Shown here piece by piece: positions 10,632 through 27,044 of a stretch of DNA of 64,000 bases. Each line of letters starts with the position of its first letter. The stretch's first letter is position 1. The DNA is from a virus. Taxonomy: Duplodnaviria; Caudoviricetes. The notes beneath the pieces are model-generated. The model saw only the letters and a list, made by a program, of their open reading frames with translations, was not told the DNA's origin and did no database searches. The stretch lies in IMG/VR virus record IMGVR_UViG_3300031673_000001; one strand, 5' to 3'. The position numbers were made by a program, and so were the translations under genes.

Positions 10632-10668
10632 CAGAGAACGCTTACACTAAATTTTAAGGAGATGCAAA

Positions 10669-10890
10669 ATGAATACATTAGAACAACAAGAACTTCTAAA
10701 AGAACTTCTAAAAGATCTGAAAAAAGAACAAATGTTTCTAGAAGCTAAAAGAAGAAATCCGGGAAAACAAATTACACCCTGCGGAAACCGAAAAACAATA
10801 CTTCAAAGCTTTGATGAGTTTGGAGGACAACTTGGCTTATGGTATAATGTAGGCAAAGACACTAAATTAGTGCCAGAGAACGATGTATGA
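10669..10890 (+). CDS. Hypothetical protein
   Basis: AAGGAG RBS; own promoter motif and terminator. Confidence 0.7.
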   Translation: MNTLEQQELLKELLKDLKKEQMFLEAKRRNPGKQITPCGNRKTILQSFDEFGGQLGLWYNVGKDTKLVPENDV

Positions 10891-10916
10891 TTTTATATCG
10901 TCTTCTGATTTAACTC

Positions 10917-10952
10917 AAAAAAGGGGTCAATAAAGTTTCAACCCCTTTTTTT
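10917..10952. terminator. Bidirectional intrinsic terminator
   Basis: AAAAAAGGGGT...ACCCCTTTTTTT between convergent genes. Confidence 0.7.
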
Positions 10953-11261
10953 CTAAAAATTTAAACAAAAAGCATCAACATTATAAACATGAACTATCTC
11001 AATACGAACTCTATCACCCTTTGAAAAAGGATGGAGCAATTTTAAATTACTTAAAATTTCAACTATATAACCACAACTACAAACTTCAATAACTCGACCC
11101 CAAATTCTCTCATAACCTTGATTAAATTCAATACAGTAACCAACTTCAACATCTGATAATTTTTGTATAGGATTAGGTGACTCATTACAACTATATTCTC
11201 TTGATAATGCCCAAGCATCAACACAGTCATTACATTTATAATCATATACACTACAACCCAT
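10953..11261 (-). CDS. Cys-rich hypothetical protein
   Basis: ORF track; last gene of the long minus-strand operon. Confidence 0.55.
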   Translation of the reverse strand: MGCSVYDYKCNDCVDAWALSREYSCNESPNPIQKLSDVEVGYCIEFNQGYERIWGRVIEVCSCGYIVEILSNLKLLHPFSKGDRVRIEIVHVYNVDAFCLNF

Positions 11262-11291
11262 AATCTATTTCCCCCAAAGATTATTATTTTT

Positions 11292-12365
11292 TTAAAATCT
11301 ATATTTCTTAATTATCTCTGCCATTCTTTCTGATGCTTTGCCATCATTTAACCTTTTTAATTCTTCAGGAAAATCTGTATGTTTACGTTCATCATTATTC
11401 ATAGGATATATTGCTGCTTTATATATCTTATCTCTATCTGGTTCAACCAACTTATTAGTTCCATACTTAATCGTATATTCAATATTAGTTGTATCTCTAA
11501 TTGAAATACATGGTATATCTAAAACTGAAGTTTCTTGCTGTATGCCATCTGAATCTGTAATTACAACACAAGAATGAATCATATATTTCAAGAAATCAAA
11601 GTATCCCATACCATCACTACAATCAACCATATTTAAATATTTCCACAATTTAAATTCATCAATCATTTTTTTGGTTCGAGGATGGATTGAAAATACAACA
11701 TGATATGATACTGATAACTGATATAATGCAATAATAATTTCTTTTAAATTATTCTCATTATCAACATTAGCTGGTCTATGAACTTCAACCAAAATGTGTT
11801 TTTCATTAGTTGGTGGTTCTTTTAACATCCTTGAGTAATGTAATAGATTATCAATCATTACATCGCCCACTAAATGTATTTTAGATATATCAATACCCTC
11901 ACTAAAAAGATTCAATTTATCTTTAGGAGATATAGGAAATAAATAATCAGATATATGATCGGTGACAATTCGATTTATTTCCTCTGGCATTTTCATATCA
12001 CCTGATCTCATACCAGCTTCTTGATGAGCAACAGGTATATGCATTTTAGAAGCTACAAGTGCAGCTGCCATAGTAGAATTAACATCTCCAACGACACAGA
12101 CTAAACTGGGCACAGAATCAAAACAAAATCTTTCAAATCGTTCCATTATTTTTCCAGTTTGTTCTCCATGAGGACCTGAACCAACTTCTAAATGAACTAA
12201 AGGATCTTTTAAATCAAACTCTTCAAAAAATACTTTACTCATATTATATTCATAATGCTGCCCTGTATGGATAATTTCATATAAAAGATCATACTTTTCA
12301 AATGCTCTTGAGATTGCTGCAATCTTAATAAAATTTGGTCGTGTTCCACCAACTAAATAAATCAT
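11292..12365 (-). CDS. wecB: UDP-N-acetylglucosamine 2-epimerase, non-hydrolysing (WecB/WbpI family)
   Basis: GGTRPNFIK, IHTGQHY, VVGDVNST, AHQEAGMRS, MPEEINR, TDSDGIQQE. Confidence 0.93.
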   Translation of the reverse strand: MIYLVGGTRPNFIKIAAISRAFEKYDLLYEIIHTGQHYEYNMSKVFFEEFDLKDPLVHLEVGSGPHGEQTGKIMERFERFCFDSVPSLVCVVGDVNSTMAAALVASKMHIPVAHQEAGMRSGDMKMPEEINRIVTDHISDYLFPISPKDKLNLFSEGIDISKIHLVGDVMIDNLLHYSRMLKEPPTNEKHILVEVHRPANVDNENNLKEIIIALYQLSVSYHVVFSIHPRTKKMIDEFKLWKYLNMVDCSDGMGYFDFLKYMIHSCVVITDSDGIQQETSVLDIPCISIRDTTNIEYTIKYGTNKLVEPDRDKIYKAAIYPMNNDERKHTDFPEELKRLNDGKASERMAEIIKKYRF

Positions 12366-13222
12366 GATCTCTCCCTTATTTCTTGAACTAATCTTATAGA
12401 TTTTCTTGAATCTTCAATACCAAATCCGTAACCTTTTAAGATATTTATATATGATTCTATATGAAGTTCAGAAAATACATTATCAAATTCTATCTTCTCA
12501 CGATCAACAATCATTCTTCGATAAAATTTTTGAGTTTTAATTGGAAGATCATTTCTATCAATAGATAAATACCAAATAACATTTGCTCTTTCTAATTGTA
12601 AACATCCAACAGATTTCTTTTCATCCCGACTTGTAATTTCAAATTTTTCAGCATCTCCAAATAACCATATCAATATATCGAAAAAATGAATCCCAATGTT
12701 TGTTTCAATCCCTCCAGATTCTCTTTCCCTTCCTTTCCAACTTTGAAAATACCATTGTCCTCTTGGTGTAATATATTTTAAATCAACAAGATATTTTTTA
12801 TTTGAATCAATCTTACTTTTAAGTTCCTTAACATTTGGATGTAGTCTTAACTGTAAAATTGAATATACTTTTTTATTAGTTTGTTTTTCAACTATTTCGA
12901 GTTGGTCAAGATTATCAACTGTCGTTGCTAAAGGTTTTTCACATATAACATTTGCTCCCAATCTCATTCCTAATTTACAATGGGATTCGTGTAAATAATT
13001 AGGAGAACATACAACCATATAATCCAATTGTTCATTCTTTGTGATATGTCTATCAAATGGTTCTTGTTGTGTAAAAAATTTACAGTCTGGAAAATACTTA
13101 TCAAGAATACCAACTGAATCATTTGGGTCAAGAGCAACAACCAATTCATTACCTGTATTTTTAATCGCTTCCATATGTCTTGGAGCAATATATCCACCTG
13201 CTCCGATTAATCCAAATTTCAT
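12362..13222 (-). CDS. wbpB: Gfo/Idh/MocA oxidoreductase, WbpB/WlbA-like UDP-GlcNAcA 3-dehydrogenase
   Basis: FGLIGAGGYIAPRH..AI, DPNDSVGI, CSPNYLH, ICEKPL, TNIGIHFFD. Confidence 0.85.
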   Translation of the reverse strand: MKFGLIGAGGYIAPRHMEAIKNTGNELVVALDPNDSVGILDKYFPDCKFFTQQEPFDRHITKNEQLDYMVVCSPNYLHESHCKLGMRLGANVICEKPLATTVDNLDQLEIVEKQTNKKVYSILQLRLHPNVKELKSKIDSNKKYLVDLKYITPRGQWYFQSWKGRERESGGIETNIGIHFFDILIWLFGDAEKFEITSRDEKKSVGCLQLERANVIWYLSIDRNDLPIKTQKFYRRMIVDREKIEFDNVFSELHIESYINILKGYGFGIEDSRKSIRLVQEIRERS

Positions 13223-13701
13223 AGTATTTCATCCTTTTCAACTTCCTTTATATACCTAGCGGGAACACCAATATATACTCCTTTTGGATTAGTGTTTTTT
13301 GTAACAACTGATCCTGCTCCAATCAAACAATTTTCTCCAATTATAACACCAGGTAACAATGTTACACCAACCCCAATTCTTGCTGCATAACAAATTCTAG
13401 GTGGAGTATTTATATCCTTGTATGGTCTCAAATAAGCAATCTTTCTTGTATTTGAGGTCATACACCCCATTCCAATAAATACTTTATCTTCTATGACAGT
13501 GCTTTTACATATATCAGAAAATGGTCTAATTAAAACATAATTTCCTATTCTTACATCTTCACCTATGTAACAATGAGATCTTATCTGTGTATTATCTCCT
13601 ATTGTAGCTCCTTTTCTTATAAGAGTAAAGTGACCAACATAACAATTTTTTCCCATAATCACATCAGATTCAACAACTGCAGTTGATTCAATTTTATTCA
13701 T
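13219..13701 (-). CDS. Hexapeptide-repeat N-acetyltransferase (WbpD-like)
   Basis: Left-handed beta-helix repeats; IGAGSVVTK...GVPAR. Confidence 0.85.
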   Translation of the reverse strand: MNKIESTAVVESDVIMGKNCYVGHFTLIRKGATIGDNTQIRSHCYIGEDVRIGNYVLIRPFSDICKSTVIEDKVFIGMGCMTSNTRKIAYLRPYKDINTPPRICYAARIGVGVTLLPGVIIGENCLIGAGSVVTKNTNPKGVYIGVPARYIKEVEKDEIL

Positions 13702-13702
13702 A

Positions 13703-14935
13703 CTATTTCCTTTTATAACTCTTAAAAAAAGATTTTTTATTCCTATGCATTTTAAGAATAGATTGTTTATGATAAGATAAAACTGATTTGCTTTTATCTA
13801 TCAAATCATTCTCAACACAATAGTTATATAACTTCGTGCCAGGAAATGGATAGAACCATGTTACTTGAACAAAATCCGGTTCAATTTCTTTATTAAAATC
13901 AGAAGTTATTTTTGTTAATTGATCATCATTATCAAATGGCCACCCTATCATATTGAATGAGATAGTATCTATATTAGCTTTTTTCAACAATTTAAAAGAT
14001 TTTCTTATTTGATCATTAGACATAAATCTATTAAGATATTTTCGTCTAAATTTCTCATCACCACATTCTATTCCCATTGCTACGACTTTACAACCAGTTC
14101 TTTTAAGAAGATCTACCATTTCTTCATTGATACATTCAACTCTACTCATGCATCCATATGGAATATTTAATTCTCTTTTCAATGATGTAAACAAATCTCT
14201 AACATAATTCATATTAGACAACACCGTATCATCACCAAAATGAAATCTTTTGAACTTATAATCATTTCTTAAATCTCCAAGTTCATCAATAACATCTTTT
14301 ACAGGTCGATATCTAACATAATCTTTACCATACATCTTTAAAAAAGTTGAGTTACAGCAGTAAGTGCATGAATATGGACATCCCCTTGTAGCTGTTACAT
14401 TCAAACTACCATTTGGATTAACAACTCTTTTGAATAATTTCCATGGAAATCTCGGAATCTTTGATAAATCCTCTGGTGGTCGTATAGGATTAGAATAAAC
14501 TTTTCCATCCTTCATATAAGCTAAATTCTCTATTTCAAATAGACTATCTTTACCATAATTATCTAAAAAATCTTTAATAAAACTTTCGCCCTCTCCTATA
14601 CACAAATAATCAATGTTTCTATTATCTTTTAAAAGTTCAGGACCAGCTACAGTAGGATGAACCCCACCCATCAAAACAGGAATATTTTTAGCATCTTTGA
14701 TATTTTTTATTAAAATACAAGCATCCAAGTATAATGTAGTAGTAGTAGATATCATAACAATGTCAACATTTTCTTTAACTAATATTTCAGGAAGTTTAGT
14801 GTATTTAGAATCCGTAGAGGGATTCATCATACAATAAAACAATAACTCATGTTCTCGTGGTATAGATGCAGCTACATAACCTGCTCCTCTGACTGGGGCA
14901 CCTTTTGGATCCATTGATACAAAAGCTATTTTCAT
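13703..14935 (-). CDS. Cobalamin-binding radical SAM protein
   Basis: N-terminal B12 domain (MGGVHPT, IGEGE); TRGCPYSCTYC; GIECG. Confidence 0.9.
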   Translation of the reverse strand: MKIAFVSMDPKGAPVRGAGYVAASIPREHELLFYCMMNPSTDSKYTKLPEILVKENVDIVMISTTTTLYLDACILIKNIKDAKNIPVLMGGVHPTVAGPELLKDNRNIDYLCIGEGESFIKDFLDNYGKDSLFEIENLAYMKDGKVYSNPIRPPEDLSKIPRFPWKLFKRVVNPNGSLNVTATRGCPYSCTYCCNSTFLKMYGKDYVRYRPVKDVIDELGDLRNDYKFKRFHFGDDTVLSNMNYVRDLFTSLKRELNIPYGCMSRVECINEEMVDLLKRTGCKVVAMGIECGDEKFRRKYLNRFMSNDQIRKSFKLLKKANIDTISFNMIGWPFDNDDQLTKITSDFNKEIEPDFVQVTWFYPFPGTKLYNYCVENDLIDKSKSVLSYHKQSILKMHRNKKSFFKSYKRK

Positions 14936-14938
14936 ATT

Positions 14939-15496
14939 TTAAACTCCTTTCATTTCTACTACAAACACTCTTTCCTCTTTTTTTCCTTGTTTATTAAAAT
15001 CCTCAAGTTTTAAAACATTACCAAATTTACAAAGTTCTTCTTCTATCCAAATAGATCTGTGTGGACCAAATTTATTTTTGTATTTTCCATATTTTTGTTG
15101 ACTTGGATACATTGGTAAAGAAATAATAGCTTGTTTACAATGCTCTTTTATATCTTGTAATAACGTCATTCCTTGTTTCTTTTCTAAATGTTCTAACATA
15201 TCTACAGATAAAATTAAATCATATAGATCCAACGTTTTAATAATTTTTGTGGCATCTCCTATATAAATATTATCATAGATAATTTTTTGCAACTTGGTTA
15301 TATATTTTTCAAATGCTTCTATACCATCTATTTTAGTCTTCCATTCAAAATGATTTCCATAATGAATATCAGTATATTCACGAGATAGAAAACCATACTT
15401 ACCAAAACCTATTCCTATATCTAATACAGATTTAGGTTTAAATTCTATTATTTTACTACAAATATATGTAAGAGCAGCTGGAGTAGAAGTGCCCAT
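14939..15496 (-). CDS. Class I SAM-dependent methyltransferase
   Basis: VLDIGIGFGKYG, DGIE, DMLEHL. Confidence 0.85.
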   Translation of the reverse strand: MGTSTPAALTYICSKIIEFKPKSVLDIGIGFGKYGFLSREYTDIHYGNHFEWKTKIDGIEAFEKYITKLQKIIYDNIYIGDATKIIKTLDLYDLILSVDMLEHLEKKQGMTLLQDIKEHCKQAIISLPMYPSQQKYGKYKNKFGPHRSIWIEEELCKFGNVLKLEDFNKQGKKEERVFVVEMKGV

Positions 15497-16431
15497 TATA
15501 TTATTTCCTCATATGTTTTTTTAAGTCGCAAACCAATACTTTCCAAACTATGATAATTCTCAACCCACTTTCGAGTTTTATATTTTAGTTTAAGTAATTC
15601 ATCTTTTGATTTTGATAATAATTTTATAAGAATACTTTCCATATCCTTTTCTGAATTAGCTATTTGAAGATAACATTTTCCATATTGTTTCTTATATTCA
15701 GATTCTCCTAAAAAATTAGTTAAAACAACTTTGCCCAATGCAGCAGCTTCAAGAGCAGTCATTCCCCAAACTCCAGTTTTGGACCATTTTTTATTTCTTT
15801 TACCTTTAGTTTTTAAACTCATTCTCTCAACATATATATCAACTGCAGACATCCGCTCAATCTGTTCTCTCCAACAAACTTTTTTATAACTATATCTATA
15901 CTCAAAATCAGAAACTTTATTTCTAATATTTTCTATTATTTTTATAATGTTATCTGATCCCTTTGTTATTCTACTTGATGGAAAGTGGGCCACTATTATC
16001 TTTTTACCTTTTGTTTCATAAATAGGTTTTATTGATTTTGTATCTATTGGAGGTAAAATCCATTTTTCATTTTTAGCGCCAAGTCCAAATAGATCATATG
16101 TTTGTATTAATGAACAATCAACTATAGGATTAAATATTTTACATATCCTTTCATGACCTTCTCTGAATTTTCCACCCCCATGAAAAACTACTATTTTCTT
16201 TCCTACCAAATTGATACCAAATTCTAATTTCTCACTATGCATAAATTGTATAATATCACATTCGATAGAAAACCTTTTAGCTTCATTAACACCTATTGAA
16301 GTGCATGGATGTTTATAATTGCCCAATTTAGAAACGTAAAATTTAGCATCAACTCCAACAGACAAAAGACTTTGTGTTAAAAGATTACCAACTCCTGACC
16401 AATCATTTTTAGCAAGTAATAAAATCTTCAT
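15496..16431 (-). CDS. Glycosyltransferase (GT-B, GT4-like)
   Basis: HFPSSRITKG; GMTALEAAALGKVV. Confidence 0.75.
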   Translation of the reverse strand: MKILLLAKNDWSGVGNLLTQSLLSVGVDAKFYVSKLGNYKHPCTSIGVNEAKRFSIECDIIQFMHSEKLEFGINLVGKKIVVFHGGGKFREGHERICKIFNPIVDCSLIQTYDLFGLGAKNEKWILPPIDTKSIKPIYETKGKKIIVAHFPSSRITKGSDNIIKIIENIRNKVSDFEYRYSYKKVCWREQIERMSAVDIYVERMSLKTKGKRNKKWSKTGVWGMTALEAAALGKVVLTNFLGESEYKKQYGKCYLQIANSEKDMESILIKLLSKSKDELLKLKYKTRKWVENYHSLESIGLRLKKTYEEII

Positions 16432-17342
16432 TATATACTCAATTTTTCAGTAAACTGTTTAACTCTTATAATATTATTATGATTATTTCTCACAAACTCC
16501 ATTCCTTGTATAGCAATTTTTTCACGTTCCTTTTTATTATTTAAATAATATTTTATTTTATCTTTTAAGGCATTTAAATCTTTATAAATAACTAAATGCT
16601 TTCCATCTTCAAATCCTAATCTATCCATATCAGCAGGTTTATCACATAATACAAATGAACCACAACTTGTAAACTCTGTAAATTTCATATTAGGAGAGTT
16701 AAAAACATTATTACTAATTATACAAATTTTACTTTGATTGATACAAGTTATATACTGTTGGTGAACAACCTTTTTCATAACAGCTTTTAGTTTTAATTTA
16801 CCAACTAACTTATTTACTTTTACTCTATTTGGATAAACATCATTCCTTTTAGTTGAAGATGTTAAAACATCATATATTTTTTTAATATTTAATTTCTTAT
16901 AAATATTAGTATCAACTGAAAATGGAAACCAAAAAGTTGGACCAGTAAATCCAATCTCTTTTAAATACTCTGCCTGGCATCCTTGTCGATAAAATAAAAT
17001 ATCATAGTTATTTCTTTCTAAAAATTGTTTATATCTAGTATGCATTCCTCCTCTATATCCTCCAGAGTGGGGAGGAAAAAGATCAACAACAATATGAACT
17101 TTTTTAATTTTTATATCACCAACATTCTTAAATGGCAAAGTATATCTCAAACCATAAGTTAATAAAAGATCAAATGGACCATACTTATCTACTATTTGTG
17201 GTGCTGTCAATTTATTATTAAAATTTGAATAACCATTACCATAATACATAACCTCATGATGTTTACCAATCTCATTTCTAAATAACTGATGCCCCCAATT
17301 ATATCTACCAATTTGATTAGGACTTAATAAGAGTATTTTCAT
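16431..17342 (-). CDS. CgeB-like glycosyltransferase
   Basis: PFSVD, MKFTEFTSCGSFVL, IA..G.EFV..NH. Confidence 0.8.
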   Translation of the reverse strand: MKILLLSPNQIGRYNWGHQLFRNEIGKHHEVMYYGNGYSNFNNKLTAPQIVDKYGPFDLLLTYGLRYTLPFKNVGDIKIKKVHIVVDLFPPHSGGYRGGMHTRYKQFLERNNYDILFYRQGCQAEYLKEIGFTGPTFWFPFSVDTNIYKKLNIKKIYDVLTSSTKRNDVYPNRVKVNKLVGKLKLKAVMKKVVHQQYITCINQSKICIISNNVFNSPNMKFTEFTSCGSFVLCDKPADMDRLGFEDGKHLVIYKDLNALKDKIKYYLNNKKEREKIAIQGMEFVRNNHNNIIRVKQFTEKLSI

Positions 17343-17887
17343 TTCTTAATACAACATAACCATAAAAAATTTTCTAGTATATTTTCATACACGACTCTTA
17401 ATTTATATTCTTCAATATATTCACTTACTTCATAAAAAGTTATTCTTCCACTTGATTTTTCATCTTTGTGTTTATAATAATCATGACTCATCAGACAATC
17501 ATCTTTCTTTAACAATGGGGCAAATCTTTTAAATTGCGGCAATTTTAAAGCACCATCATTTAATATTAAAACTCTACTAAATGATTCTAATAACCTTTCA
17601 ATCATATTATTTTCATTAATATCTTCACAATAAAAACAACCATCTAATTTATTTAATCTACTTTTAACTTTTTCACTAATATCTTTTATATCAAATGTTA
17701 TAAATGTTGCAGACATTTCTTTAGATTTTTTAGCTAAATAAATAGAAAAATTTCCAGAACCAGTGCCAATTTCAATAATAGTTTTAAATTTTTCTTTGGC
17801 AAAAAATGAATCAAAAACATCCAAAACTCCCTTCTTTTGTTTCATTCCTTTTTCACGTTCTCTTAAATTTCCAACTTTAGATTTCAT
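17339..17887 (-). CDS. SAM-dependent methyltransferase-like protein
   Basis: IIEIGTGSG motif I; HDY near C-terminus. Confidence 0.65.
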   Translation of the reverse strand: MKSKVGNLREREKGMKQKKGVLDVFDSFFAKEKFKTIIEIGTGSGNFSIYLAKKSKEMSATFITFDIKDISEKVKSRLNKLDGCFYCEDINENNMIERLLESFSRVLILNDGALKLPQFKRFAPLLKKDDCLMSHDYYKHKDEKSSGRITFYEVSEYIEEYKLRVVYENILENFLWLCCIKK

Positions 17888-18506
17888 ATATCATTCTCCT
17901 AATTATTAATCCTTCTGCGTGTGCATCTATATCATCTGAAACTAAAGTTGCCCAATATGCTTCCATCTTTTGTCTACGATCTAATTTGAGTGCGCCACAT
18001 TTAATCTGTGATTCAAAACAATTAATCATTTCCATTTTCTTTTCATAATCAATAAAACTAAATAAATTAGGATAAAATTCAATAGAAGAACCACAATAAT
18101 AAAAGATTGTAGTTATATTTCTTTTTCGCCCAACTGATTGAGCTATCTTTGAACAACGTATATGATCTTGGTGTGTATCATTATGATACGGAGTATATAT
18201 AATATCCGGTTTCATTTGATCCAACTCTGAAATAATAAAAGCAGAATCATCATTTGTTGAAAACATACAAAGATCATCTTTCATCAAACCATAAACTTCC
18301 ATTGCTTTTAGTTGTTCATTGATTCTTATTTTTGGGTCTCCTGTTCGAAACTCATCTGTACTCATGATAATAACTTTTATTCTATCTCCATTTTCGTGGT
18401 GTCTTAATAATGTGCCTCCAATACCTGTCTCAACATCATCAAAATGAGCTCCAGTTGCTAATATTAGCTTAGGGTTTCTTGTGCCACAATTCATCTTCTC
18501 TAACAT
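17877..18506 (-). CDS. PIG-L/LmbE family N-deacetylase
   Basis: AHFDDVETGIGGT; DTHQDH. Confidence 0.9.
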   Translation of the reverse strand: MLEKMNCGTRNPKLILATGAHFDDVETGIGGTLLRHHENGDRIKVIIMSTDEFRTGDPKIRINEQLKAMEVYGLMKDDLCMFSTNDDSAFIISELDQMKPDIIYTPYHNDTHQDHIRCSKIAQSVGRKRNITTIFYYCGSSIEFYPNLFSFIDYEKKMEMINCFESQIKCGALKLDRRQKMEAYWATLVSDDIDAHAEGLIIRRMIYEI

Positions 18507-19047
18507 CTCTCAATCTCCTCGCTGGTATCCCTGCATATACTCCATTTGGTTCGGTATCCTTATTAACAAAAGCACATGCACCAATTATACAATTTTCAGC
18601 TATTGTAATTCCGCCCATAATAATTGAATTATCTCCAAAAAACGATCCTTCTTTTATATGTAATGCCTTTTGTGTTGCTTGTGCAGAATGATCCAGAAAA
18701 ATAGTTTTCACACCCGCTGTAAAGAAATTATTATCTTCAATAATAACATTTCTTGCAATAACTGTTCTGTATCTTAAAGTAACGTTATTTCCTATACTAC
18801 AAGCTCCAGAAGATAAAACATAACTATCAATATAGCAATCGTTTCCAATTTTTGTACCCGGTTTTAATAAAACATAATTTTGAATATCAACATTATCTCC
18901 CACCACAACATCTCTCATAATTGTATTAAAGCTTCCAACTTTAATATTTCTACCAAATATGAAATCTTGAGAAATATCATTATATTTTCCAAACATCTTT
19001 TGTTTTAGTATATTTTCCATTTCTTCATATCCTGATATACTTTTCAT
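18469..19047 (-). CDS. Hexapeptide-repeat acyltransferase
   Basis: Beta-helix repeats; IGACAFVNKD...AGIPAR. Confidence 0.85.
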   Translation of the reverse strand: MKSISGYEEMENILKQKMFGKYNDISQDFIFGRNIKVGSFNTIMRDVVVGDNVDIQNYVLLKPGTKIGNDCYIDSYVLSSGACSIGNNVTLRYRTVIARNVIIEDNNFFTAGVKTIFLDHSAQATQKALHIKEGSFFGDNSIIMGGITIAENCIIGACAFVNKDTEPNGVYAGIPARRLRDVREDELWHKKP

Positions 19048-19059
19048 TTTTCATCTCCT

Positions 19060-19833
19060 TTATCTCAATGAACTATCATAAGGTTTCACATATTTTGCAG
19101 GACTGCCTATATAAGTTCCCGATTCTCTTATATCTTTTAATACAACAGATCCAGCTCCAATAATAACTTTATCACAAATTGAAATGTTACTTCTTGTTAT
19201 AACCCCCTGCCATATATAACAATAATCCCCTACTGTACATCCTCCTCCCAATAAAACTCCTGGTGCAATAAAAGATCTTTTTCCAATAATACAATTATGT
19301 CCTATATTACACTTAACACAAACTTTAGTTCCCTCACCAATAATTGTAGAAGTCATTCCTGCTCGATGTACAATTGATAGTGCCTCAATGTCTACATTGT
19401 CTTCGATAATAATATTACCCATATGTTTTAAATTTATCATACTTCCATCTGGGCATCGGCAATAAGTATTACCATGAACCCCAAATACAACACTTTCATG
19501 AATATTAACATTCTTTCCGATTATGTTTTCTTTTGGTTCTTTATTTTCATTTATTAGATTGTGGGCATAAGTAAAAACATATTCTATACTATCGGATTCA
19601 TCTATAACGTGAACATTAATATTTTCAGGAAGATTCTTAATAACTTCTTCATCCATATGATATGGAACTACAACATCTAAATTTAAACCTATTTTATTAA
19701 GTCTTCTAAGATAATCAGAACTTCTGGCAAATGTTAAACTATCATCAACAGGTTCTAATATTGAGCATGTTTTATCAAATTTTAATAATTTCGCATATTT
19801 TTTTTCTACTAATCCCATCATTTTTTCTCCCAT
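19060..19833 (-). CDS. LpxD-like acyltransferase
   Basis: HMGNIIIEDNVDIEA.SIVHRA....TIIGEGTKV...CNIGHNC.IG resembles the LpxD core. Confidence 0.7.
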   Translation of the reverse strand: MGEKMMGLVEKKYAKLLKFDKTCSILEPVDDSLTFARSSDYLRRLNKIGLNLDVVVPYHMDEEVIKNLPENINVHVIDESDSIEYVFTYAHNLINENKEPKENIIGKNVNIHESVVFGVHGNTYCRCPDGSMINLKHMGNIIIEDNVDIEALSIVHRAGMTSTIIGEGTKVCVKCNIGHNCIIGKRSFIAPGVLLGGGCTVGDYCYIWQGVITRSNISICDKVIIGAGSVVLKDIRESGTYIGSPAKYVKPYDSSLR

Positions 19834-20555
19834 TTCACAAATGTTTCTCCCTTTGGTTTTCCAAGTTTTAGTTTATTCTTCCACTCCTGTCCTTTCCTAC
19901 CATCTATCATTCTCAAATCACCTTGCTTTGTATATAAACCATATTGCCAATTCTTAATATGTTCTCTCATATAATTTTGTGAAAATCTAAATTGTTTTTC
20001 AGGATTTATATTATCAACCATACATTTAAGAGCACCATCAATAAATGCTTTTTTTATTAAAATCGGGTTCAATCCAAATTGTTTCTTCCAATCCTTAGCT
20101 AAATAAAAACCTTCCGGTTGATAAATCCATTTACAAGAAAATGTGTGTATCACTTTTACTCTTGGGGTTGAGTGTTTATACAATCTCAAGCTTGATAATT
20201 TTGGATACTTTTCATGTATAGAAATCATATCATCAATATCAATTGGTCTTAATATATTAATATCATCTTCCCAATGAAAAGCATATGGTGCCTCAACTTG
20301 TGACCAAACCCATTTAACAGCTTTAGGAAATGATGGTTCTTTAGCAATATTATATTTAACTTCATCAAAGAATTTTTTAGCTGTTTTAACCACCTTCATT
20401 GGATCTATGTCTTCCCCTATTGGATCAACATTAATAATTAAACGAAAACCTTTTTGTTTTTTGATAACATTCTTATGTATTGTTCTAAGGGTGCTGGCAA
20501 GCATTTTTGGTCTAATAACTGCAGTCATTGTAATGTCAACTTTATGATCAATCAT
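19818..20555 (-). CDS. Putative GT-A glycosyltransferase
   Basis: TAVIRP N-terminus; FHWEDD acidic motif. Confidence 0.6.
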   Translation of the reverse strand: MIDHKVDITMTAVIRPKMLASTLRTIHKNVIKKQKGFRLIINVDPIGEDIDPMKVVKTAKKFFDEVKYNIAKEPSFPKAVKWVWSQVEAPYAFHWEDDINILRPIDIDDMISIHEKYPKLSSLRLYKHSTPRVKVIHTFSCKWIYQPEGFYLAKDWKKQFGLNPILIKKAFIDGALKCMVDNINPEKQFRFSQNYMREHIKNWQYGLYTKQGDLRMIDGRKGQEWKNKLKLGKPKGETFVKWEKK

Positions 20556-21382
20556 ATATACCTTCCAAATAATTTACCTTTATCATACAATTTGATCTCT
20601 AAATCATTTTTTGGATTTCTTATAAGAAAAGGTTGTAATCTGGGATGTAATTCATGACCAATCCAAAACTCAACAATAAAACCAATATCAATAGTTCTGC
20701 CACCATTCTCTTTTATTAAACCAGAGTATATTCTTCCTAATTCTCCAGCTGCTACCAACCAGAAATCATATTTATTAGCAAATTCAAAAATTTTATTAGA
20801 AACATTTTTAAATGAATTTTTATATTGATTTTCATATTGACCTACAATTTCAACAATATCAACATCATAACCATAACTTTCTAATGTCTCTTTAATTTTA
20901 GGAACTGCTGTTATAATACAAACTTTCCTATCTTTCATTAAATCTAAAATATTTCTTGTATTTTTATTAAATCTAATTGTCATTAAATAATTAGATTCTG
21001 GATTACAGTAATTTTCATTATCAATCTCAAATCTACTATATAAATCTTTCCAAATAGTTAATTTTTTAGCAGTAGAATCACTAATATTTCTAATATCAGA
21101 TTTTACTCTTGGCCAAAAATATCCATCAAAATACACTTGTGCAGAATCAATAAAATCAGCTTGTCTAGCATAATACCCCCATAGATCGAGTATCTCCAAT
21201 ATTCGGTTATGTGGCATTCCTTCTTTTTTCATAATTTTAGCTAAATGACTGGCATCACCTTTTAACACAGCAGACATATATTTCAAACCGCCATCTCCAA
21301 ATCTAATATGTGAAAATGGTATATCATTTTCAATACAATTTTCTAGCTTTGAAAGAATCTCTCTAACTCTATATATTTTCAT
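20552..21382 (-). CDS. GT-D fold-like glycosyltransferase
   Basis: FSHIRFGDGG; VAAGELG; IDIG. Confidence 0.65.
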   Translation of the reverse strand: MKIYRVREILSKLENCIENDIPFSHIRFGDGGLKYMSAVLKGDASHLAKIMKKEGMPHNRILEILDLWGYYARQADFIDSAQVYFDGYFWPRVKSDIRNISDSTAKKLTIWKDLYSRFEIDNENYCNPESNYLMTIRFNKNTRNILDLMKDRKVCIITAVPKIKETLESYGYDVDIVEIVGQYENQYKNSFKNVSNKIFEFANKYDFWLVAAGELGRIYSGLIKENGGRTIDIGFIVEFWIGHELHPRLQPFLIRNPKNDLEIKLYDKGKLFGRYI

Positions 21383-22397
21383 CTTTTAACCTTTTCAAAA
21401 GATTAACAAATTCAATCATATTTTCTTCTCTACTACCTAGTTCAATAATTTTCTTTCTTCCTCTCTTTCCAAGTTCCTCTTGGAGCTTCAAATCATTCAT
21501 AAGATTTCTAGTTGCTTTGACAAATGATGTTAAATTATTTAAACAAATCAATCCCGTTTTCATATGAGTTAAATAATCCTTCATTCCGTTCATTTCACTG
21601 TCTGTTCCAATGACAGCACACTCTGTTAAAAGAGCTTCAGCAGGAGGCATATGTAAACCCTCAAGAGAACTAGGAGCTAACCAAATATTAACACGATTAT
21701 AAAATTCATTTTTTTCTTTTAATGATGGTTTCTGAATATAATGTTCCATTAAAAAACCTTTTGGTCTTGAATGAGTTCCAAACATCCAAAATTCAACATC
21801 ATTTCTTTTAGTTTTTATTTCAAAAGCTGTTTGATATAACCATGATGTTCTCTTCTCTTGATTTTTTCTATCTTCATTATACAAACCACCAATAATTATT
21901 TTTTGATTATTTTCTCGAATTCCTAAGGGTTTAAAACTATCAATATCATATCCAGGTCTAACAATGTGGCATTTACAATTATAAAATTCAAGTTTCTTTT
22001 GAAGTCCAATACCATTAACTAATTTAATTGTTGGAGCTCCCAAAATTTTTTTGACAATATCACGTTCAGGCATCTGCCATGTCTCCCATGCTCTCAACCA
22101 ATGCAGTTTAATACCACAACTGGAAGGAGCACTAACAGTTGGACCAACTGATTTATAACCTGTCGCAATAATAAAATCTGCATCGGGAATTCTATTACAT
22201 CTCAAATGTTCAGCTTTTAAAGGAGTCCATGTATGACAATTCTTTCCACTATCAACAATATAAACCTCATGACCCAAATCAACTAATGTATTTGCTGAAT
22301 TAATTATTGTGCTACTTCCACCATTATCCCCAAGTCCAACTCTTCTAAGATCGAAAGTAATCCTCATACTGATCAATTCCCTCATCAACTGTATCAC
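21369..22397 (-). CDS. GT4 glycosyltransferase
   Basis: GGSSTI, EGLHMPPAEALLTECAVI. Confidence 0.85.
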   Translation of the reverse strand: MIQLMRELISMRITFDLRRVGLGDNGGSSTIINSANTLVDLGHEVYIVDSGKNCHTWTPLKAEHLRCNRIPDADFIIATGYKSVGPTVSAPSSCGIKLHWLRAWETWQMPERDIVKKILGAPTIKLVNGIGLQKKLEFYNCKCHIVRPGYDIDSFKPLGIRENNQKIIIGGLYNEDRKNQEKRTSWLYQTAFEIKTKRNDVEFWMFGTHSRPKGFLMEHYIQKPSLKEKNEFYNRVNIWLAPSSLEGLHMPPAEALLTECAVIGTDSEMNGMKDYLTHMKTGLICLNNLTSFVKATRNLMNDLKLQEELGKRGRKKIIELGSREENMIEFVNLLKRLKDENI

Positions 22398-23154
22398 ATT
22401 TAATTACTACACTCTTCAATGGATTCATCAAATTTATAGCATCATTAGTAAATTTCTCTTTAACTGTTATTACACTAGTTCCACATAAAACTGCAAATTT
22501 TGCTAAATCATCATCAAAATTTGAAATAACAAATTTACACTTCTTTAAAAGTTCAATCAAACATCCTAATGTAGAAGAACTTTCAGTGCACATATATTTT
22601 ATCTTCTCATAAAAACTCTCACTTGTAATCACATTATAATTTTCTAATTCTATACTTTCATCATTTGTAACTACAATATTCGTTAAATCTTCATAAACTT
22701 TATTGATTATGTAAGAGTTTTCAGATCTTGGTTTATAATCATAATCCATATGTGCTCGTGGAAATTGCCATTTCACTTTATACATAAAACCTTCAATTCT
22801 AGGTGCATAATGATCTACTATCTTATATGTCTTCATATACTTTTTTTCTATAAAATTATAAATATGCACATATTCATCAACATAATATCCTTTAATCTTA
22901 AATCCATCCTCCTTATATATATTGTCATCTATTTTAAGAGGGACCAATATACTTGCGTACTGCCCATATAAATCGAAACTTCTTGATCTCGTAAAAACTA
23001 TTAGATGATAATTAGGAAATCTCTTTTTTAATGAGATAGCATATGGAGCAAATCTATACATCTCCCAATACAACTCACCAATAAAAGGACCAAATATAAA
23101 TGCTTTTTTACTTCCCTTTACCTTTCTCTGGTTTCGGATCATTAGTTTTCTCAT
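22345..23154 (-). CDS. Putative glycosyltransferase-like protein, paralog of 23337..24263
   Basis: Shared GPF.GELYWE..RFAP and FDLYG..ASILVPL.ID. Confidence 0.55.
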   Translation of the reverse strand: MRKLMIRNQRKVKGSKKAFIFGPFIGELYWEMYRFAPYAISLKKRFPNYHLIVFTRSRSFDLYGQYASILVPLKIDDNIYKEDGFKIKGYYVDEYVHIYNFIEKKYMKTYKIVDHYAPRIEGFMYKVKWQFPRAHMDYDYKPRSENSYIINKVYEDLTNIVVTNDESIELENYNVITSESFYEKIKYMCTESSSTLGCLIELLKKCKFVISNFDDDLAKFAVLCGTSVITVKEKFTNDAINLMNPLKSVVIKCDTVDEGIDQYEDYFRS

Positions 23155-23344
23155 TCACTAATATAGTTAGTCTTTTAACCTCACCTTGTAATTTTGCAAT
23201 CTCATATTTCATACCACTTAGCATTCCTCTAATTTCTCTAATCGGAAATTCTTCATAACTTCCGCCCATCATTTCTAATTCAATAAGATGTTTATCAATC
23301 TTCTCAATCTTTCTTAAATTCGCTTCCAAAAATGCATTATCCAT
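23108..23344 (-). CDS. Small coiled-coil hypothetical protein
   Basis: ORF track; overlaps both neighbours. Confidence 0.5.
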   Translation of the reverse strand: MDNAFLEANLRKIEKIDKHLIELEMMGGSYEEFPIREIRGMLSGMKYEIAKLQGEVKRLTILVNEKTNDPKPEKGKGK

Positions 23345-24263
23345 TTTTTATTTCTCCTTTTTTTCTATTTAAAATTTTCTTAAAATTTTCATATATTTTC
23401 TTTGGTTCAATATCGTATTTACAATCATCAATAAATACGATTGAAGTATTATGAACATTATACGTTTTCGTATGCAACGATTTCTGACATCCAAATTCTA
23501 ACACTGGAACTTTATACAGCAAAGAAATATTTGGAATGGCACTTTGAGAACCAAATGTGAAAAATGCCTTTTCCATTATTACTAATAAAATACCAACCAA
23601 GGAAGAGCTTCCATTTAGTTTTATTTTATTCATATCCAAAAATCTATCATACTTATCCGGTACATATTCATTAACCTTTCCACAGATTATAAAATTATAA
23701 AATTCATTTAAATCTTTATCCTCATAAAGCATATCATAAAAACTTTGCCAGTGTATCCAATTTCTTCTAAATCCAATTCTAAATCTCGGGGAAATAACCA
23801 CAATAGGTTTGTCTTTTGGTAAATATGCGTCAACCAAATTATAATTATTTTCTCTTGGAGCAAATTTGAAAACCATACGTTGTCTATCATACTGATGTTT
23901 TCTATCAAAGAATCCCTTCTTGACATTGGGATAGATATGTTCCATTATATTATACTTAACTTCATATTTTTTTCTAAATTTTTTACTAATTTCTTCATAT
24001 TCTTCAGGATTCAAACCATTTAATCTAAAACAATTTGGTTGTTTTTTACCTACATAATCTCCATCAATTCTTAAAGGAACTAAAATACTAGCAAACTTTC
24101 CATATAAATCAAACCTTTCTTCTCTAGTATAAATAATATATTTAACATTTCTTTTTTTATATTTTTTAGATCTCATAAAAGGAAGCATTGGTGCAAATCT
24201 ACCACATTCCCAATAAAGCTCTCCAACGAAAGGTCCCATAAGAACAGCATCTTCTTTCTTCAT
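23337..24263 (-). CDS. Putative GT9-like glycosyltransferase
   Basis: C-terminal FGSQSAIPNISLLYKVPVL; context. Confidence 0.55.
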   Translation of the reverse strand: MKKEDAVLMGPFVGELYWECGRFAPMLPFMRSKKYKKRNVKYIIYTREERFDLYGKFASILVPLRIDGDYVGKKQPNCFRLNGLNPEEYEEISKKFRKKYEVKYNIMEHIYPNVKKGFFDRKHQYDRQRMVFKFAPRENNYNLVDAYLPKDKPIVVISPRFRIGFRRNWIHWQSFYDMLYEDKDLNEFYNFIICGKVNEYVPDKYDRFLDMNKIKLNGSSSLVGILLVIMEKAFFTFGSQSAIPNISLLYKVPVLEFGCQKSLHTKTYNVHNTSIVFIDDCKYDIEPKKIYENFKKILNRKKGEIKNG

Positions 24264-24264
24264 A

Positions 24265-25098
24265 TTACCAATCCTTGTTCATAGATTGATCATTAGAAAC
24301 CTTTTCATAGAAATCTTTAAATGTAAAGCTTTCAATATTCTTTTCAGCTTCTACAAATTGAATTAATTTTTCCCTTTTTGGATCATTTTTATGACTCGTT
24401 AATTTATTACAAACAGACCCCGCCATCTTTCCACAATGAACTCCTAATTTAACACCTATGCCCATTATGTAAGGTTTGTTTTCATTTTTTTGTTGCATAA
24501 GTTTCCAATAGTGTTGATCGTGCTTTTTATCTTGCTTCACTAATGGTCCCAATGCAAGAGTTCCAACATCTGAAAAAAAATTATTTCTCATACTCCAAAG
24601 ACCCGAACCTCCCAAGTGACCAACTTTTGCATCAACTCCATTAATTTTAATATTATCAGAAATTTGTTTAATTCCTCCAGGTAGCTGTCCAATAACTTTA
24701 ATATGTTTCATTTTATTTTCTTTAACATAATTCCATGCCAACTTAAGATTTTTATCCCATTCTGGAGCAACAATAATATCATTATCTAAACATACTAAAA
24801 AATCATACTTGTGTTTTATAGGATCCTCTTCATGCTGTCTACCAAAGAAATTAAATGCTGACGCTTTACTAAAAGCATTGAATGTTGAATCTTTTGTTGT
24901 AAATGTAATCTGCGCAATTTTACCTGCAATATACTGCTCACAAAAATAAGCAAAGTGTTTAGCTACCATATAATTAGTGCTATTATCATAAACATATATT
25001 TGGTGTGGTATTGTTGAATGCCTTCTTAATCCTTCAAGACACTTCTTTGTTATCTCTAATCTATTTCTTACCGAAATAAATATCTTAATCATTAGCAA
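24265..25098 (-). CDS. GT2 glycosyltransferase
   Basis: IFISVRNR...VYDNS...CLDNDI. Confidence 0.8.
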   Translation of the reverse strand: MLMIKIFISVRNRLEITKKCLEGLRRHSTIPHQIYVYDNSTNYMVAKHFAYFCEQYIAGKIAQITFTTKDSTFNAFSKASAFNFFGRQHEEDPIKHKYDFLVCLDNDIIVAPEWDKNLKLAWNYVKENKMKHIKVIGQLPGGIKQISDNIKINGVDAKVGHLGGSGLWSMRNNFFSDVGTLALGPLVKQDKKHDQHYWKLMQQKNENKPYIMGIGVKLGVHCGKMAGSVCNKLTSHKNDPKREKLIQFVEAEKNIESFTFKDFYEKVSNDQSMNKDW

Positions 25099-26389
25099 TT
25101 AACTCCTCAATTTTTTCAACTGCTAGATCCTTATCTATTTGATCGTAACAGGGACTTGCACCATCTGATCCTGCTTTTGGACAAGGATTATGACCATGAA
25201 GAAAACAAGGAGAACAAGGCAAAACACCATCAACCCAACCTGCTTTAGGATATGTTTTTAATCTAATAAAACCTGGGAATGGACCATATATACCATAACA
25301 AGGAATATTCATTGATGCTGCAATGTGATTTAATGCTGAATCGGTTGCTACAGCACATTTTGATAAATAAGTTAGAGCAATTGTATAATCTAGAGTTTTT
25401 GAAAATTTTGAAAAGTTATAAACCTTACTTCTATCACAACTTAAATAATCCTGTATGAAATTATCCATCTGTTCTTCTTGTCTCTTCGTATCAGTTAAAA
25501 CAACATTATGCCCTTTATCTACTAATTTATTAATTAATTCTCCAAAAAACTCTGGTCGAGGTGTACGTATTGGAGAACTAGCTCGAACTTGCATAATAAT
25601 AAAATTCTTTTCTTCCAATTCCCAACCACCAAGAACATCTTTAACCTCATCAACAATATGCCATTTTGGTTCTTGCTCAGGAATTAATAATTTATCATCC
25701 AAGTCCAAACCAATCCATCTAGAAAAAAGATTATATGCATTTTGGTGTTGAGCTAACTTACATCTTTCAATAACACCTTCAAATAAAACATGATAATCAG
25801 AATCTAATAATAATCTTAATTGATAAGGTAGCTCAAGTAACTCATCAATACAATCCCAATTTTCAACCATCGCTTTATATTGCGGACCACAGGCAAATCT
25901 AATATAACAATTTGGATATTTTTCTTTTAGATATTTAAGATTTGGTTGAATAAATAAAAGATCTCCAATGCCACCTGTCCTAGAAACTAAAATTGACTTT
26001 CCATCCAATTCCTCTCCAGCATATGGACGATACACTCTTGAAAATTCAGGTTTGGTAGGTTTTAGAAGTGCTTTGCCACCTTTTTCTGGTTTGTGTAATT
26101 GCTGATAAACCCCTAATCCCATAACATACTTATTACCTTTTTTAAGAACCTGCTCCTTAAAAAAGTTTTGAACAAATGAAACTCTAGTTCTAGCTTCTGC
26201 AACAATAATATTTGGAGGACTCTTTCTCAATTCATCAAAATCAGCAACCATTTTAATATCTGCTGATTTCAAACCAAGTTCACGCATTTTTGATTTTGAT
26301 ACCTTTCGAAACTTTTTCATTTTTGGAAGATCGCTATACCAATACCCAAGATTACTTTCTGAATTCTCACCATTCAATTCAATAGACAT
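25085..26389 (-). CDS. GT9 (heptosyltransferase-like) glycosyltransferase
   Basis: RTGGIGDLL; ATDSALNHIAASMNIPCYGIYGP; PCSPC. Confidence 0.85.
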   Translation of the reverse strand: MSIELNGENSESNLGYWYSDLPKMKKFRKVSKSKMRELGLKSADIKMVADFDELRKSPPNIIVAEARTRVSFVQNFFKEQVLKKGNKYVMGLGVYQQLHKPEKGGKALLKPTKPEFSRVYRPYAGEELDGKSILVSRTGGIGDLLFIQPNLKYLKEKYPNCYIRFACGPQYKAMVENWDCIDELLELPYQLRLLLDSDYHVLFEGVIERCKLAQHQNAYNLFSRWIGLDLDDKLLIPEQEPKWHIVDEVKDVLGGWELEEKNFIIMQVRASSPIRTPRPEFFGELINKLVDKGHNVVLTDTKRQEEQMDNFIQDYLSCDRSKVYNFSKFSKTLDYTIALTYLSKCAVATDSALNHIAASMNIPCYGIYGPFPGFIRLKTYPKAGWVDGVLPCSPCFLHGHNPCPKAGSDGASPCYDQIDKDLAVEKIEELIAND

Positions 26390-27043: not shown

Positions 27044-27044
27044 T

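Follow-up and report, generated by a model that had tools for sequence, protein, structure and literature searches.

A putative cytoplasmic glycan assembly line in an uncultured jumbo phage, with virion proteins as its possible acceptor

What does a tailed phage build with a long run of sugar-handling genes, and onto what molecule is the product placed? The question is raised by the IMG/VR virus record IMGVR_UViG_3300031673_000001 (Duplodnaviria; Caudoviricetes), of which a stretch of 64,000 nucleotides was analysed (hereafter, the window). From window position 26389 down to 10953 lie 20 contiguous minus-strand genes, with overlaps or spacers of no more than 30 nt throughout, which include 9 glycosyltransferase-like genes, 3 hexapeptide acyltransferases, a PIG-L deacetylase, 2 probable S-adenosylmethionine (SAM) methyltransferases, a B12 radical SAM enzyme and a WbpD/WbpB/WbpI-like trio (hereafter, the island). 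We propose that, in an uncultured jumbo phage, the island may serve as a glycan assembly line that is autonomous to the phage, works wholly in the cytoplasm and glycosylates virion proteins, a view that we hold tentatively and at somewhat less than an even chance. Virion decoration and host-surface remodelling are the two leading readings, and sequence alone does not separate them.

Family calls were made with Pfam, NCBIfam, structure-atlas comparison and PDB searches of the island proteins. They agree with a preliminary description of this DNA, made from its letters, on the three hexapeptide acyltransferases, the PIG-L deacetylase, the B12 radical SAM enzyme, the nucleotide-sugar enzymes and the tight same-strand packing, and make the content slightly richer than the roughly eight glycosyltransferases counted there; its two methyltransferases stand as probable SAM methyltransferases, each with a sub-threshold Pfam match of its own. 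Every gene from 38607 down to 1 is on the minus strand, while the plus-strand half of the window encodes a RecD-like helicase, a clamp loader, a flap nuclease, a ribonucleotide reductase and a RecA-like protein; because of these replication and repair functions, we take the window to be part of a large tailed phage. Many island families are typical of bacterial surface-polysaccharide loci, which favors the explanation, already raised in the preliminary description, that the block is host DNA mis-assembled onto phage DNA or a very recent host-derived island. The assembly argues against this explanation: the protein of the first island gene (the GT9 gene described below) is identical on 11 contigs (50 kb to 1 Mb) with unchanged neighbours, and both island borders are bridged at even depth by exact contigs from two source runs and from an independent 2022 marine-sediment run; in soil and sediment samples that contain the phage, its word depth is about 16-20x. 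Further, the GC fraction of the island (0.26-0.31) is near that of the flanking minus-strand genes (0.29-0.33), synteny is found in 28 viral loci that include complete genomes with terminal repeats, and the closest homologs of the GT9, GT9-like, GT-A and WbpB genes sit on phage-like contigs. The single arrangement on 11 contigs, the border-bridging contigs and the 28 syntenic loci rule out a host chimera, and we assign a host-derived block of either kind a negligible probability.

The 5' part of the island, which proved to be its conserved core, consists of the following genes:

25085-26389, minus strand: GT9 heptosyltransferase-like protein, 434 aa, first island gene (PF01075, 32.5 bits, cut-off 22)
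24265-25098, minus strand: probable GT-A-fold glycosyltransferase-like protein, 277 aa, core (weak Pfam GT2 match, E 0.12)
23337-24263, minus strand: GT9-like GT-B glycosyltransferase, 308 aa, core (structure atlas)
23108-23344, minus strand: small helical protein, 78 aa, conserved (fills an apparent 182-nt gap, 23154-23337)
22345-23154, minus strand: GT9-like paralog, 265-269 aa (BLASTP to 23337-24263: 35% over 172 aa, E 6e-28)
21369-22397, minus strand: GT4 glycosyltransferase (PF13692, 40.9 bits; PF00534, 38.8 bits)

The first of these genes can be assigned to the GT9 family by the sequence threshold and by the GT-B fold of its structural model (predicted local distance difference test, pLDDT, 88.8), and nucleotide-activated heptose is its predicted donor, based on heptose-pathway genes of relatives (below). 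By profile it matches WaaF (1psw, E 5.5e-11; 45 bits by sequence), and the VIA Z-scores of the model are 25.1 to the GT9 enzyme 3tov, 23.9 to WaaF, 21.6 to WaaC and 21.5 to TibC, vs. at most 13.6 for the next structural family (other GT-B enzymes). The protein has a conserved extra N-terminal domain of 4-5 strands (about residues 1-125), and its Cys/His finger (C392, C395, H398, C403, C414), which in the model sits in the coil between the last strand and the C-terminal helix, is invariant in 44 sequences. A self-pairing prediction with two copies scored 0.00 and was used as evidence neither way. Both additions recall the TibC/AAH autotransporter heptosyltransferases, which act on protein serines in the cytoplasm with ADP-heptose and among which TibC has a beta-barrel domain and an iron finger (PMC4358343); the catalytic domains of the two are related as GT9 enzymes (Z 21.5, 287 residues aligned), and the extra N-terminal domain and four-Cys finger near the C-terminus of the phage protein may be counterparts of those of TibC. 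They differ in Cys spacing (339/342/358/370 in TibC vs. 392/395/403/414 in the phage GT9), the phage N-domain is not matched to the TibC beta-barrel, an autotransporter substrate is lacking, and TibC gave no match to the phage GT9 by sequence at E <=10. In the best alignments to TibC, which begin at residue 60 or 115 of the model, the span is 287 residues, no longer than with GT9 enzymes without the N-domain, and their Z of 21.5 is on a par with that for WaaC and lower than those for WaaF and 3tov. Structure does not, then, place the phage GT9 closer to TibC than to the heptosyltransferases of lipopolysaccharide (LPS).

The same comparisons bring in the principal rival explanation, under which the enzymes remodel the host LPS or lipo-oligosaccharide core on lipid A-Kdo (Kdo, ketodeoxyoctonate) at the inner membrane face, host MsbA/Lpt exports the product, and the altered surface would block superinfection or change receptor display. 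We regard this explanation as a serious contender that is, nonetheless, rather unlikely. WaaC, WaaF, WaaQ (all GT9) and WaaG (GT4) make up the LPS inner-core set, supplied by GmhA/HldE/GmhB/HldD. The island resembles this set in the fold of its GT9 (Z 21-24, nearest to the LPS heptosyltransferases in sequence as well), in having three GT9-type genes plus a GT4 gene, and in that the enzymes are soluble. It departs from it in that the phage GT9 is about 90-110 residues longer, with the conserved N-domain and the invariant Cys finger, neither of which WaaC or WaaF (320-350 aa) has.

The other core genes are recognised with varying ease. The GT-A-like protein at 24265-25098 gave no sequence match in a PDB profile search; it carries a DxD-type motif, D105-N106-D107, after a hydrophobic strand, invariant in 5 homologs, and an hhalign comparison shows no relation of its family to the second GT-A-like family of the island (19818-20555). 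The GT9-like protein at 23337-24263 has an atlas feature score of 0.98, with TM-scores of 0.83-0.86 to mostly viral clusters named GT9 and 0.67-0.69 to bacterial PF01075 clusters. The 78-aa open reading frame (ORF) is gene-called in the related locus L039, and relatives have a homolog (80-117 aa) at the corresponding site, as the neighbouring paralog (22345-23154) has a gene of 255-266 aa at its position.

How constant is this arrangement? Over 28 IMG/VR loci related to the island, the GT9 gene was found in 28/28, the GT-A-like (24265-25098) and GT9-like (23337-24263) genes in 25/28 each and the GT4 gene (21369-22397) in 21/28, followed by the GT-D gene (14/28), the GT-A gene at 19818-20555 (10/28) and the CgeB-like gene (9/28), with recognised tailoring genes in 0-4 of the 28; genes farther than about 10 kb from GT9 are undercounted in these figures because the loci end there. 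Relatives from other samples keep the gene order neck / NUDIX / actin-like / small genes / GT9 / GT-A-like / GT9-like / small ORF / GT9-like / GT4, and two relatives are complete genomes with terminal repeats (277 and 312 kb). Relatives may share 74% GT9 identity and still differ in their outer genes: locus L040 carries a sulfotransferase, a methyltransferase and short-chain dehydrogenase/reductase (SDR) dehydratases there, locus L041 other transferases, and locus L074 (G006:C1:236500-254500), with an island of ~24.5 kb, a B12 radical SAM enzyme, two SDR epimerases/dehydratases, an asparagine-synthase-like amidotransferase, a DegT aminotransferase and a terminal 2-epimerase. These comparisons show a lineage-wide conserved 5' core and a fast-changing 3' part, and such a core-to-outer gradient of variability is typical of exposed glycans.

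The GT9 protein has 698 full-length homologs at 55-83% identity, and the family of the tail terminator encoded upstream of the island (below) has 540, of which the 120 listed are at 56-93%; several contigs carry both. By these sequence comparisons, GT9 is about as conserved as the neighbouring virion protein, and for a host-surface accessory it would be odd to have a core of that conservation fixed among the virion-side genes of a lytic-type jumbo phage, which counts against the LPS explanation; late rebuilding of LPS in a lytic cycle is likewise without obvious benefit. Among cultured phages, megablast of 20 kb against 50,697 phage records and tblastn with the GT9, GT9-like, CgeB-like and tail-terminator proteins gave nothing or short matches at 29-34%; an exact-word search of IMG/VR gave no match.

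The variable 3' part comprises the remaining transferases and the tailoring enzymes:

20552-21382, minus strand: GT-D-fold glycosyltransferase (PF22882, 42.3 bits, cut-off 27; NCBIfam GT-D_rel, 35 bits, below cut-off)
19818-20555, minus strand: GT-A/GT2-like glycosyltransferase (atlas TM 0.67-0.81 to GT2 clusters; nearest clusters mostly viral)
19060-19833, minus strand: LpxD-like hexapeptide N-acyltransferase (Pfam Hexapep; 122.7 bits to NCBIfam lipid_A_lpxD across its C-terminal 150 residues, below cut-off)
18469-19047, minus strand: hexapeptide sugar acyltransferase, NeuD/PglB/VioB-like (Hexapep, 75 bits; TIGR03570, 77 bits, below cut-off)
17877-18506, minus strand: PIG-L family de-N-acetylase (PF02585, 52.4 bits, cut-off 28.2)
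17339-17887, minus strand: probable SAM methyltransferase (sub-threshold Pfam methyltransferase; a relative's same-position gene matches PF13578)
16431-17342, minus strand: CgeB-like glycosyltransferase, Glyco_trans_1_2 (PF13524, 72.3 bits, cut-off 25)
15496-16431, minus strand: weak GT4-like protein (PF00534, 20.9 bits, below the cut-off of 26.4; absent there in one relative)
14939-15496, minus strand: probable SAM methyltransferase (sub-threshold Pfam methyltransferase; a relative's gene matches PF13489)
13703-14935, minus strand: B12-binding radical SAM enzyme, class B, methylase-like (PF04055, 86.9 bits; PF02310, 46.1 bits; no NCBIfam equivalog reached)
13219-13701, minus strand: 3-amino-sugar N-acetyltransferase-like protein, WbpD/WlbB/QdtC class (PDB phmmer)
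12362-13222, minus strand: WbpB/WlbA-type UDP-N-acetylglucosaminuronic acid (UDP-GlcNAcA) 3-dehydrogenase, GFO/IDH/MocA (PDB 3oa2, 293.9 bits; 3o9z, 261.7 bits; full length)
11292-12365, minus strand: non-hydrolysing UDP-N-acetylhexosamine (UDP-HexNAc) 2-epimerase, WecB equivalog, nearest to the WbpI/WlbD type (TIGR00236, 278 bits, cut-off 210)
10953-11261, minus strand: Cys-rich protein, 102 aa, last island gene (translation; no family found in Pfam searches)

Three adjacent genes near the end of the island (WbpB, the N-acetyltransferase and the 2-epimerase) resemble those of the pathway to UDP-2,3-diacetamido-2,3-dideoxy-mannuronic acid (UDP-ManNAc3NAcA), encoded by WbpA/B/E/D/I in Pseudomonas O5 and WlbA-D in Bordetella. 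The dehydrogenase belongs to the WbpB/WlbA class, the next GFO-family member scoring only 46.8 bits; its homologs across the phage lineage are 59-83% identical, and the 50,697 GenBank phage records searched gave no matching WbpB-type gene, only matches at about 24% identity. The N-acetyltransferase-like protein matches 7s43 (79 bits), a WxcM-like protein (73.5), QdtC (67) and WlbB 3mqg (61), and the 2-epimerase matches an archaeal UDP-GlcNAc 2-epimerase (4neq, 274.5 bits) and the Thermus UDP-2,3-diacetamido-2,3-dideoxy-glucuronic acid 2-epimerase (8sxv, 265 bits vs. 118 for classical WecB). Of the five steps, the window holds only the B-, D- and I-like genes: no UDP-sugar 6-dehydrogenase (WbpA type) or DegT aminotransferase (WbpE type) was found among the window ORFs scanned, and the relative G006 has a DegT gene inside its island. 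Matches to UDPG_MGDP_dh_N in relatives were not taken as WbpA, being partial and in ORFs of ~290 aa a long way from the island. O antigens and Bordetella LPS are known to contain sugars of the ManNAc3NAcA type, which is a further point for the LPS explanation.

Where would the heptose come from? Heptose-7-phosphate kinase genes were found in 7/10 related records, including all six that are at least 65% complete, and the three without a match are 38-58% complete. Each of the first five large relatives searched has one PfkB-family gene; three of these scored 341-346 bits on TIGR02198 (cut-off 345) for the aligned part alone, and two further relatives scored 362 and 245 bits. The genes located in relatives are:

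G003:C1:245327-246190, G004:C1:45353-46246, G006:C1:162118-163020 and G010:C1:111514-112437: heptose-kinase-type genes (PfkB / TIGR02198), the one in G010 within a 472-aa, HldE-sized frame
G006:C1:222934-223305: GmhA-like isomerase, 3 kb upstream of GT9

Small ORFs that resemble cytidylyltransferases were noted as well. Together, the kinase, GmhA-like and cytidylyltransferase-like genes of the relatives would make a phage-borne nucleotide-heptose pathway. The heptose kinase and GmhA genes are also a likeness to the LPS inner core, and the kinase genes in particular favor the LPS explanation, under which the host would need heptose-containing LPS, which it may lack.

Pfam found no initiating phosphoglycosyl transferase, flippase, polymerase, ligase or ABC exporter family in the island, and none of its 20 proteins has a membrane segment beyond hydrophobic beta-helix repeats. 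This lack of membrane proteins rules out a Wzx/Wzy or ABC pathway complete in itself and, with neither lipid-carrier primer nor exporter encoded, implies that sugars are added one by one onto a cytoplasmic acceptor. This lack does not count against the LPS explanation, because transferases of the LPS core need no exporter of their own; what does count against it is that the island has no Kdo transferase, lipid A gene or O-antigen ligase. The enzyme set supports the complex acylated and methylated oligosaccharide that the preliminary description had proposed. Activated heptose and a 2,3-diacetamido-uronic acid would be among the donors; N-acetyl groups would be removed and other acyl groups put in, the PIG-L deacetylase presumably working with two acyltransferases, one of them LpxD-like; and the chain would be methylated and perhaps sulfated. 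Under the virion reading, the acceptor would be one or more virion proteins during particle assembly, GT9 would start the chain on the protein, as the TibC/AAH enzymes do, and the particle would gain a conserved inner sugar and a strain-specific outer coat.

Several lines of evidence favor virion proteins as the acceptor. The transferases behave as core genes whose position among the virion-side genes is fixed; variability rises from the core to the outer part, as in displayed glycans; a gp15-like tail terminator that carries the only poly-Ser tract of the window is encoded in the long co-directional run to which the island belongs; by analogy, the GT-D and CgeB-like families and the GT9 N-domain and Cys finger, which recall TibC, point to protein substrates; and mycobacteriophages and Megavirinae offer precedents (below). 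GT-D and CgeB-like families act on serine-rich adhesins and spore crust. The genes of the upstream side that matter here are:

33150-34505, minus strand: gp15-like tail terminator/neck protein, candidate acceptor (Foldseek on a model of pLDDT 65, built with 44 homologs)
32076-33134, minus strand: Ser/Thr-rich protein, 352 aa, in the slot between the tail terminator and tandem hairpins
31890-32070, minus strand: pair of Y-shaped hairpins in tandem, with a U-run after the second (-37.3 and -34.6 kcal/mol, z -6.9 and -4.6)
28142-29158, minus strand: actin-like protein, 338 aa (Pfam Volactin PF25216, 251.7 bits)

By the fold of its model, which is of moderate quality, the protein at 33150-34505 is predicted to be a tail terminator or neck protein: Foldseek matched it (probability 1.00) to the phiKZ neck (9e-7) and the T4 portal-neck-tail complex (3e-6), as well as to the P1 tail and T4 gp15, and its BFVD matches are named tail sheath stabiliser. 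Its C-terminal poly-Ser tail (residues about 406-451, DNA 33210-33290), the sole coding Ser-rich tract of the window, is present in 10/13 relatives at >=80% identity, in three of which a poly-Ser linker is followed by an extra domain of ~160-210 aa. In close relatives (proteins P0005, P0007 and P0010), the linker carries either such an extra ~160-210-aa domain or a short acidic RLTDDGD-type repeat, and linker and added domains look like a variable display module at the phage neck. The poly-Ser tail was rejected as a conserved acceptor, since the relatives L001 and L024 keep the glycosyltransferase core without it.

The nearest recognisable virion gene is thus of the tail terminator/neck type, not the head-type genes directly upstream that the preliminary description had claimed, and it is set apart from the island by the hairpins at 31890-32070, where that description had noticed no terminator. 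In our view, these hairpins probably form an attenuating terminator that parts the neck/fibre genes from those leading into the island. The 352-aa protein encoded next to them (32076-33134) has no homolog in 28/28 related loci, and its slot is hypervariable, with a 1675-aa gene in L041 (L041:2-5029) and nothing in other relatives; such behaviour is fibre- or receptor-binding-like. PDB profile searches with the 650-aa and 202-aa upstream proteins gave nothing, and a PHROGs search of the flanks was almost blank.

Several of these results weigh against virion glycosylation. No acceptor was identified; GT9, GT4 and heptose together are what textbooks describe for the LPS inner core, whose enzymes are also soluble or peripheral, and structure fails to separate the phage GT9 from the LPS heptosyltransferases. 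The hairpins separate the neck genes from the island, and the poly-Ser tail is confined to close relatives, being absent from L001 and L024. On the supply side, the heptose kinase was seen in relatives only, the window being the part of this genome that was covered, and the WbpA- and WbpE-type steps are missing as described above.

The genes immediately upstream of the island (26411-31883) are small genes of no recognised function, transmembrane (TM)/Cys-rich, NUDIX and actin-like genes; that is, they are not classical virion genes. The actin-like gene stands beside the glycan core in 18/28 loci, and in L001 GT9 directly follows it. Separately, the Volactin gene of L024 (L024:9578-11833) is a 751-aa frame of which only the first ~190 residues align to the 338-aa protein of the window, and it may hold an intein or insertion. 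This neighbourhood, along with the missing acceptor, favors a third explanation, namely that the glycan is placed on another cytoplasmic molecule, such as a non-structural phage or host protein (e.g., the actin-like filament or injected proteins), a small molecule or a glycolipid; B12 radical SAM enzymes and LpxD-like acyltransferases are also common in natural-product and lipid pathways. A set of 9-10 transferases with a hypervariable outer part is, however, more in keeping with a polymer on display than with a metabolite or a regulatory tag inside the cell, and the operon has no polyketide, peptide or lipid scaffold genes, so we judge this third explanation unlikely.

A fourth explanation is that the enzymes hypermodify the phage DNA with sugars against restriction. 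Phage transferases can place heptose or Kdo on 5-hydroxymethylcytosine (bioRxiv 10.1101/2023.12.21.572611), and the window carries the nucleotide-modification gene Q_salvage. Against this, in known DNA glycosylation the transferases number from one to a few and are encoded next to base-hydroxymethylating enzymes, within modules on the replication side, compared to 9-10 transferases and a dozen tailoring genes here; no pyrimidine hydroxymethylase or 5-methylcytosine dioxygenase lies within the operon; and T4 beta-glucosyltransferase is not among the 50 best structures for the GT9 model. We consider DNA as the target very unlikely. The queuosine-salvage (Q_salvage) protein (55193-56086) and a stand-alone LigD 3'-phosphoesterase domain protein (51940-52425) both lie among the replication genes.

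Is the island a transcription unit of its own? The signals and genes on its downstream side are:

10913-10952, minus strand: intrinsic terminator closing the island (14-bp stem, 7-nt loop, U-run; -15.9 kcal/mol, z -3.58)
6636-7292, minus strand: sulfotransferase (Pfam), in a detached unit, 5620-7292
5620-6639, minus strand: GT4 glycosyltransferase of the detached unit (Pfam)

A consensus promoter/terminator scan found no terminator within 10953-31883, and the same scan missed the terminator at 10913-10952 because of the 7-nt loop and A/U-extended stem of the latter. Sigma-70-like matches in that scan were at chance level, and the T4-type late promoter word TATAAATA had no informative placement. 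The 17-mer TTATTTATATATATAGT has three perfect copies on the minus strand (4352-4368, 7697-7713 and 10610-10626), each ~40-70 nt upstream of the first gene in a minus-strand group downstream of the island, and a 2-mismatch variant at 38669-38685, where the long minus-strand run begins; neither a copy of it nor a terminator lies between 31883 and 26389. The 17-mer is probably a phage-specific promoter, and its copies in front of the downstream groups make the island a unit separate from the ligase, primase-like and peptidase genes and from the sulfotransferase and GT4 pair. The latter lies 3.7 kb beyond the island, with its own promoter-like 17-mer at 7697-7713. In L001, a homolog of its GT4 directly follows the CgeB-like gene, contiguous with the core, and we therefore count the pair as part of the island system; the island keeps its limits as first described, and the whole system reaches further, to the unit at 5620-7292. 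Three further observations concern this side of the window: a papain-family C1 peptidase, an ATP-dependent DNA ligase and an archaeo-eukaryotic primase (AEP)-like protein (7994-10571) form their own unit between the island and the pair; a plus-strand ORF of ~75 aa (about 10667-10890) lies antisense between the island terminator and the next 17-mer; and the A-run/U-run symmetry of the terminator would permit action in both directions.

How does this compare to known systems? In mycobacteriophages (Che8, Corndog and others; Freeman et al. 2023), capsid and tail-tube glycosylation has been described, as cited in PMC12619734 and PMC11256854. According to these accounts, phage transferases modify their own particle in the cytoplasm without export machinery, as proposed here, and the glycans sit on C-terminal parts of abundant virion proteins. 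The mycobacteriophages described there are actinobacterial siphoviruses of about 60 kb with few transferases, as opposed to ~20 genes in a jumbo phage; unlike the systems as presented in those accounts, the island has its own nucleotide-sugar and tailoring chemistry, GT9/heptose-type enzymes and a layout of conserved core and variable outer part. The fibrils of Megavirinae are glycosylated by clade-specific clusters of 6-33 genes (PMC10117803), which, like the island, join rare bacterial-type amino-sugar pathways and transferases and are cytoplasmic and independent of host machinery. These viruses are eukaryote-infecting Nucleocytoviricota with bacillosamine, viosamine and quinovosamine as sugars, no homology between the clusters and the island has been shown, and their glycans are chemically proven on the fibrils, whereas the island is known from its DNA. 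Compared to the LPS inner core, the island lacks Kdo and lipid A genes and is virus-encoded within a virion-side run.

Among large phages, many transferases together with nucleotide-sugar enzymes occur, as in the island, in the cyanophages S-SCSM2R (13 transferases), S-SCSM1 and P-SSM2 (PMC12801897), and the 'moraphages' likewise have transferases in their lineage core, with four core glycosyltransferase orthogroups (PMC12619734); both reports give gene lists without operon anatomy, a heptose link or core/variable analysis. Transferases of large phages are usually read as host-envelope functions (bioRxiv 10.64898/2026.10.24.761521; PMC10747093), and this treatment of huge-phage glycosyltransferases as envelope-directed, to which PMC12801897 also belongs, favors the LPS explanation. 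What is new here is the operon anatomy, the GT9-led conserved core with a hypervariable tailoring block and its link to a phage-encoded heptose pathway, as well as the WbpB/D/I trio and B12 radical SAM enzyme, and the fact that membrane machinery is completely absent.

A more specific proposal, to which we give modest credence, well short of an even chance, is that a whole lineage of uncultured phages of 0.25-0.3 Mb makes its own nucleotide-heptose and builds an LPS-core-like oligosaccharide directly on virion proteins, in the cytoplasm, without a lipid carrier and via TibC-like GT9s. The inner sugars would be fixed, while those further out, with acyl, methyl and sulfate groups and with 2,3-diacetamido-uronic acids among them, would be strain-variable, so that the particles would have 'serotypes' that imitate a bacterial surface.

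Virus-made glycans are proven for giant eukaryotic viruses and a few small mycobacteriophages, and the transferases of huge phages are usually filed as host-envelope 'auxiliary' functions. The transferases of the island behave, instead, as core genes, with a fixed position by the neck genes and a conservation about that of a structural protein, and the tailoring chemistry (i.e., the WbpB/D/I pathway, the B12 radical SAM enzyme and LpxD-like N-acylation) is rare or unreported in phages. The conserved GT9 offers a single testable entry point under either reading. With the product on LPS, the inner core of the host would be rebuilt by a lineage of lytic jumbo phages, a case likewise unreported. 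If it is on the particle, the island would be the phage counterpart of the Mimivirus glycan coat and may add a further dimension in which phages diversify, one that bears on adsorption, stability, grazing and recognition.

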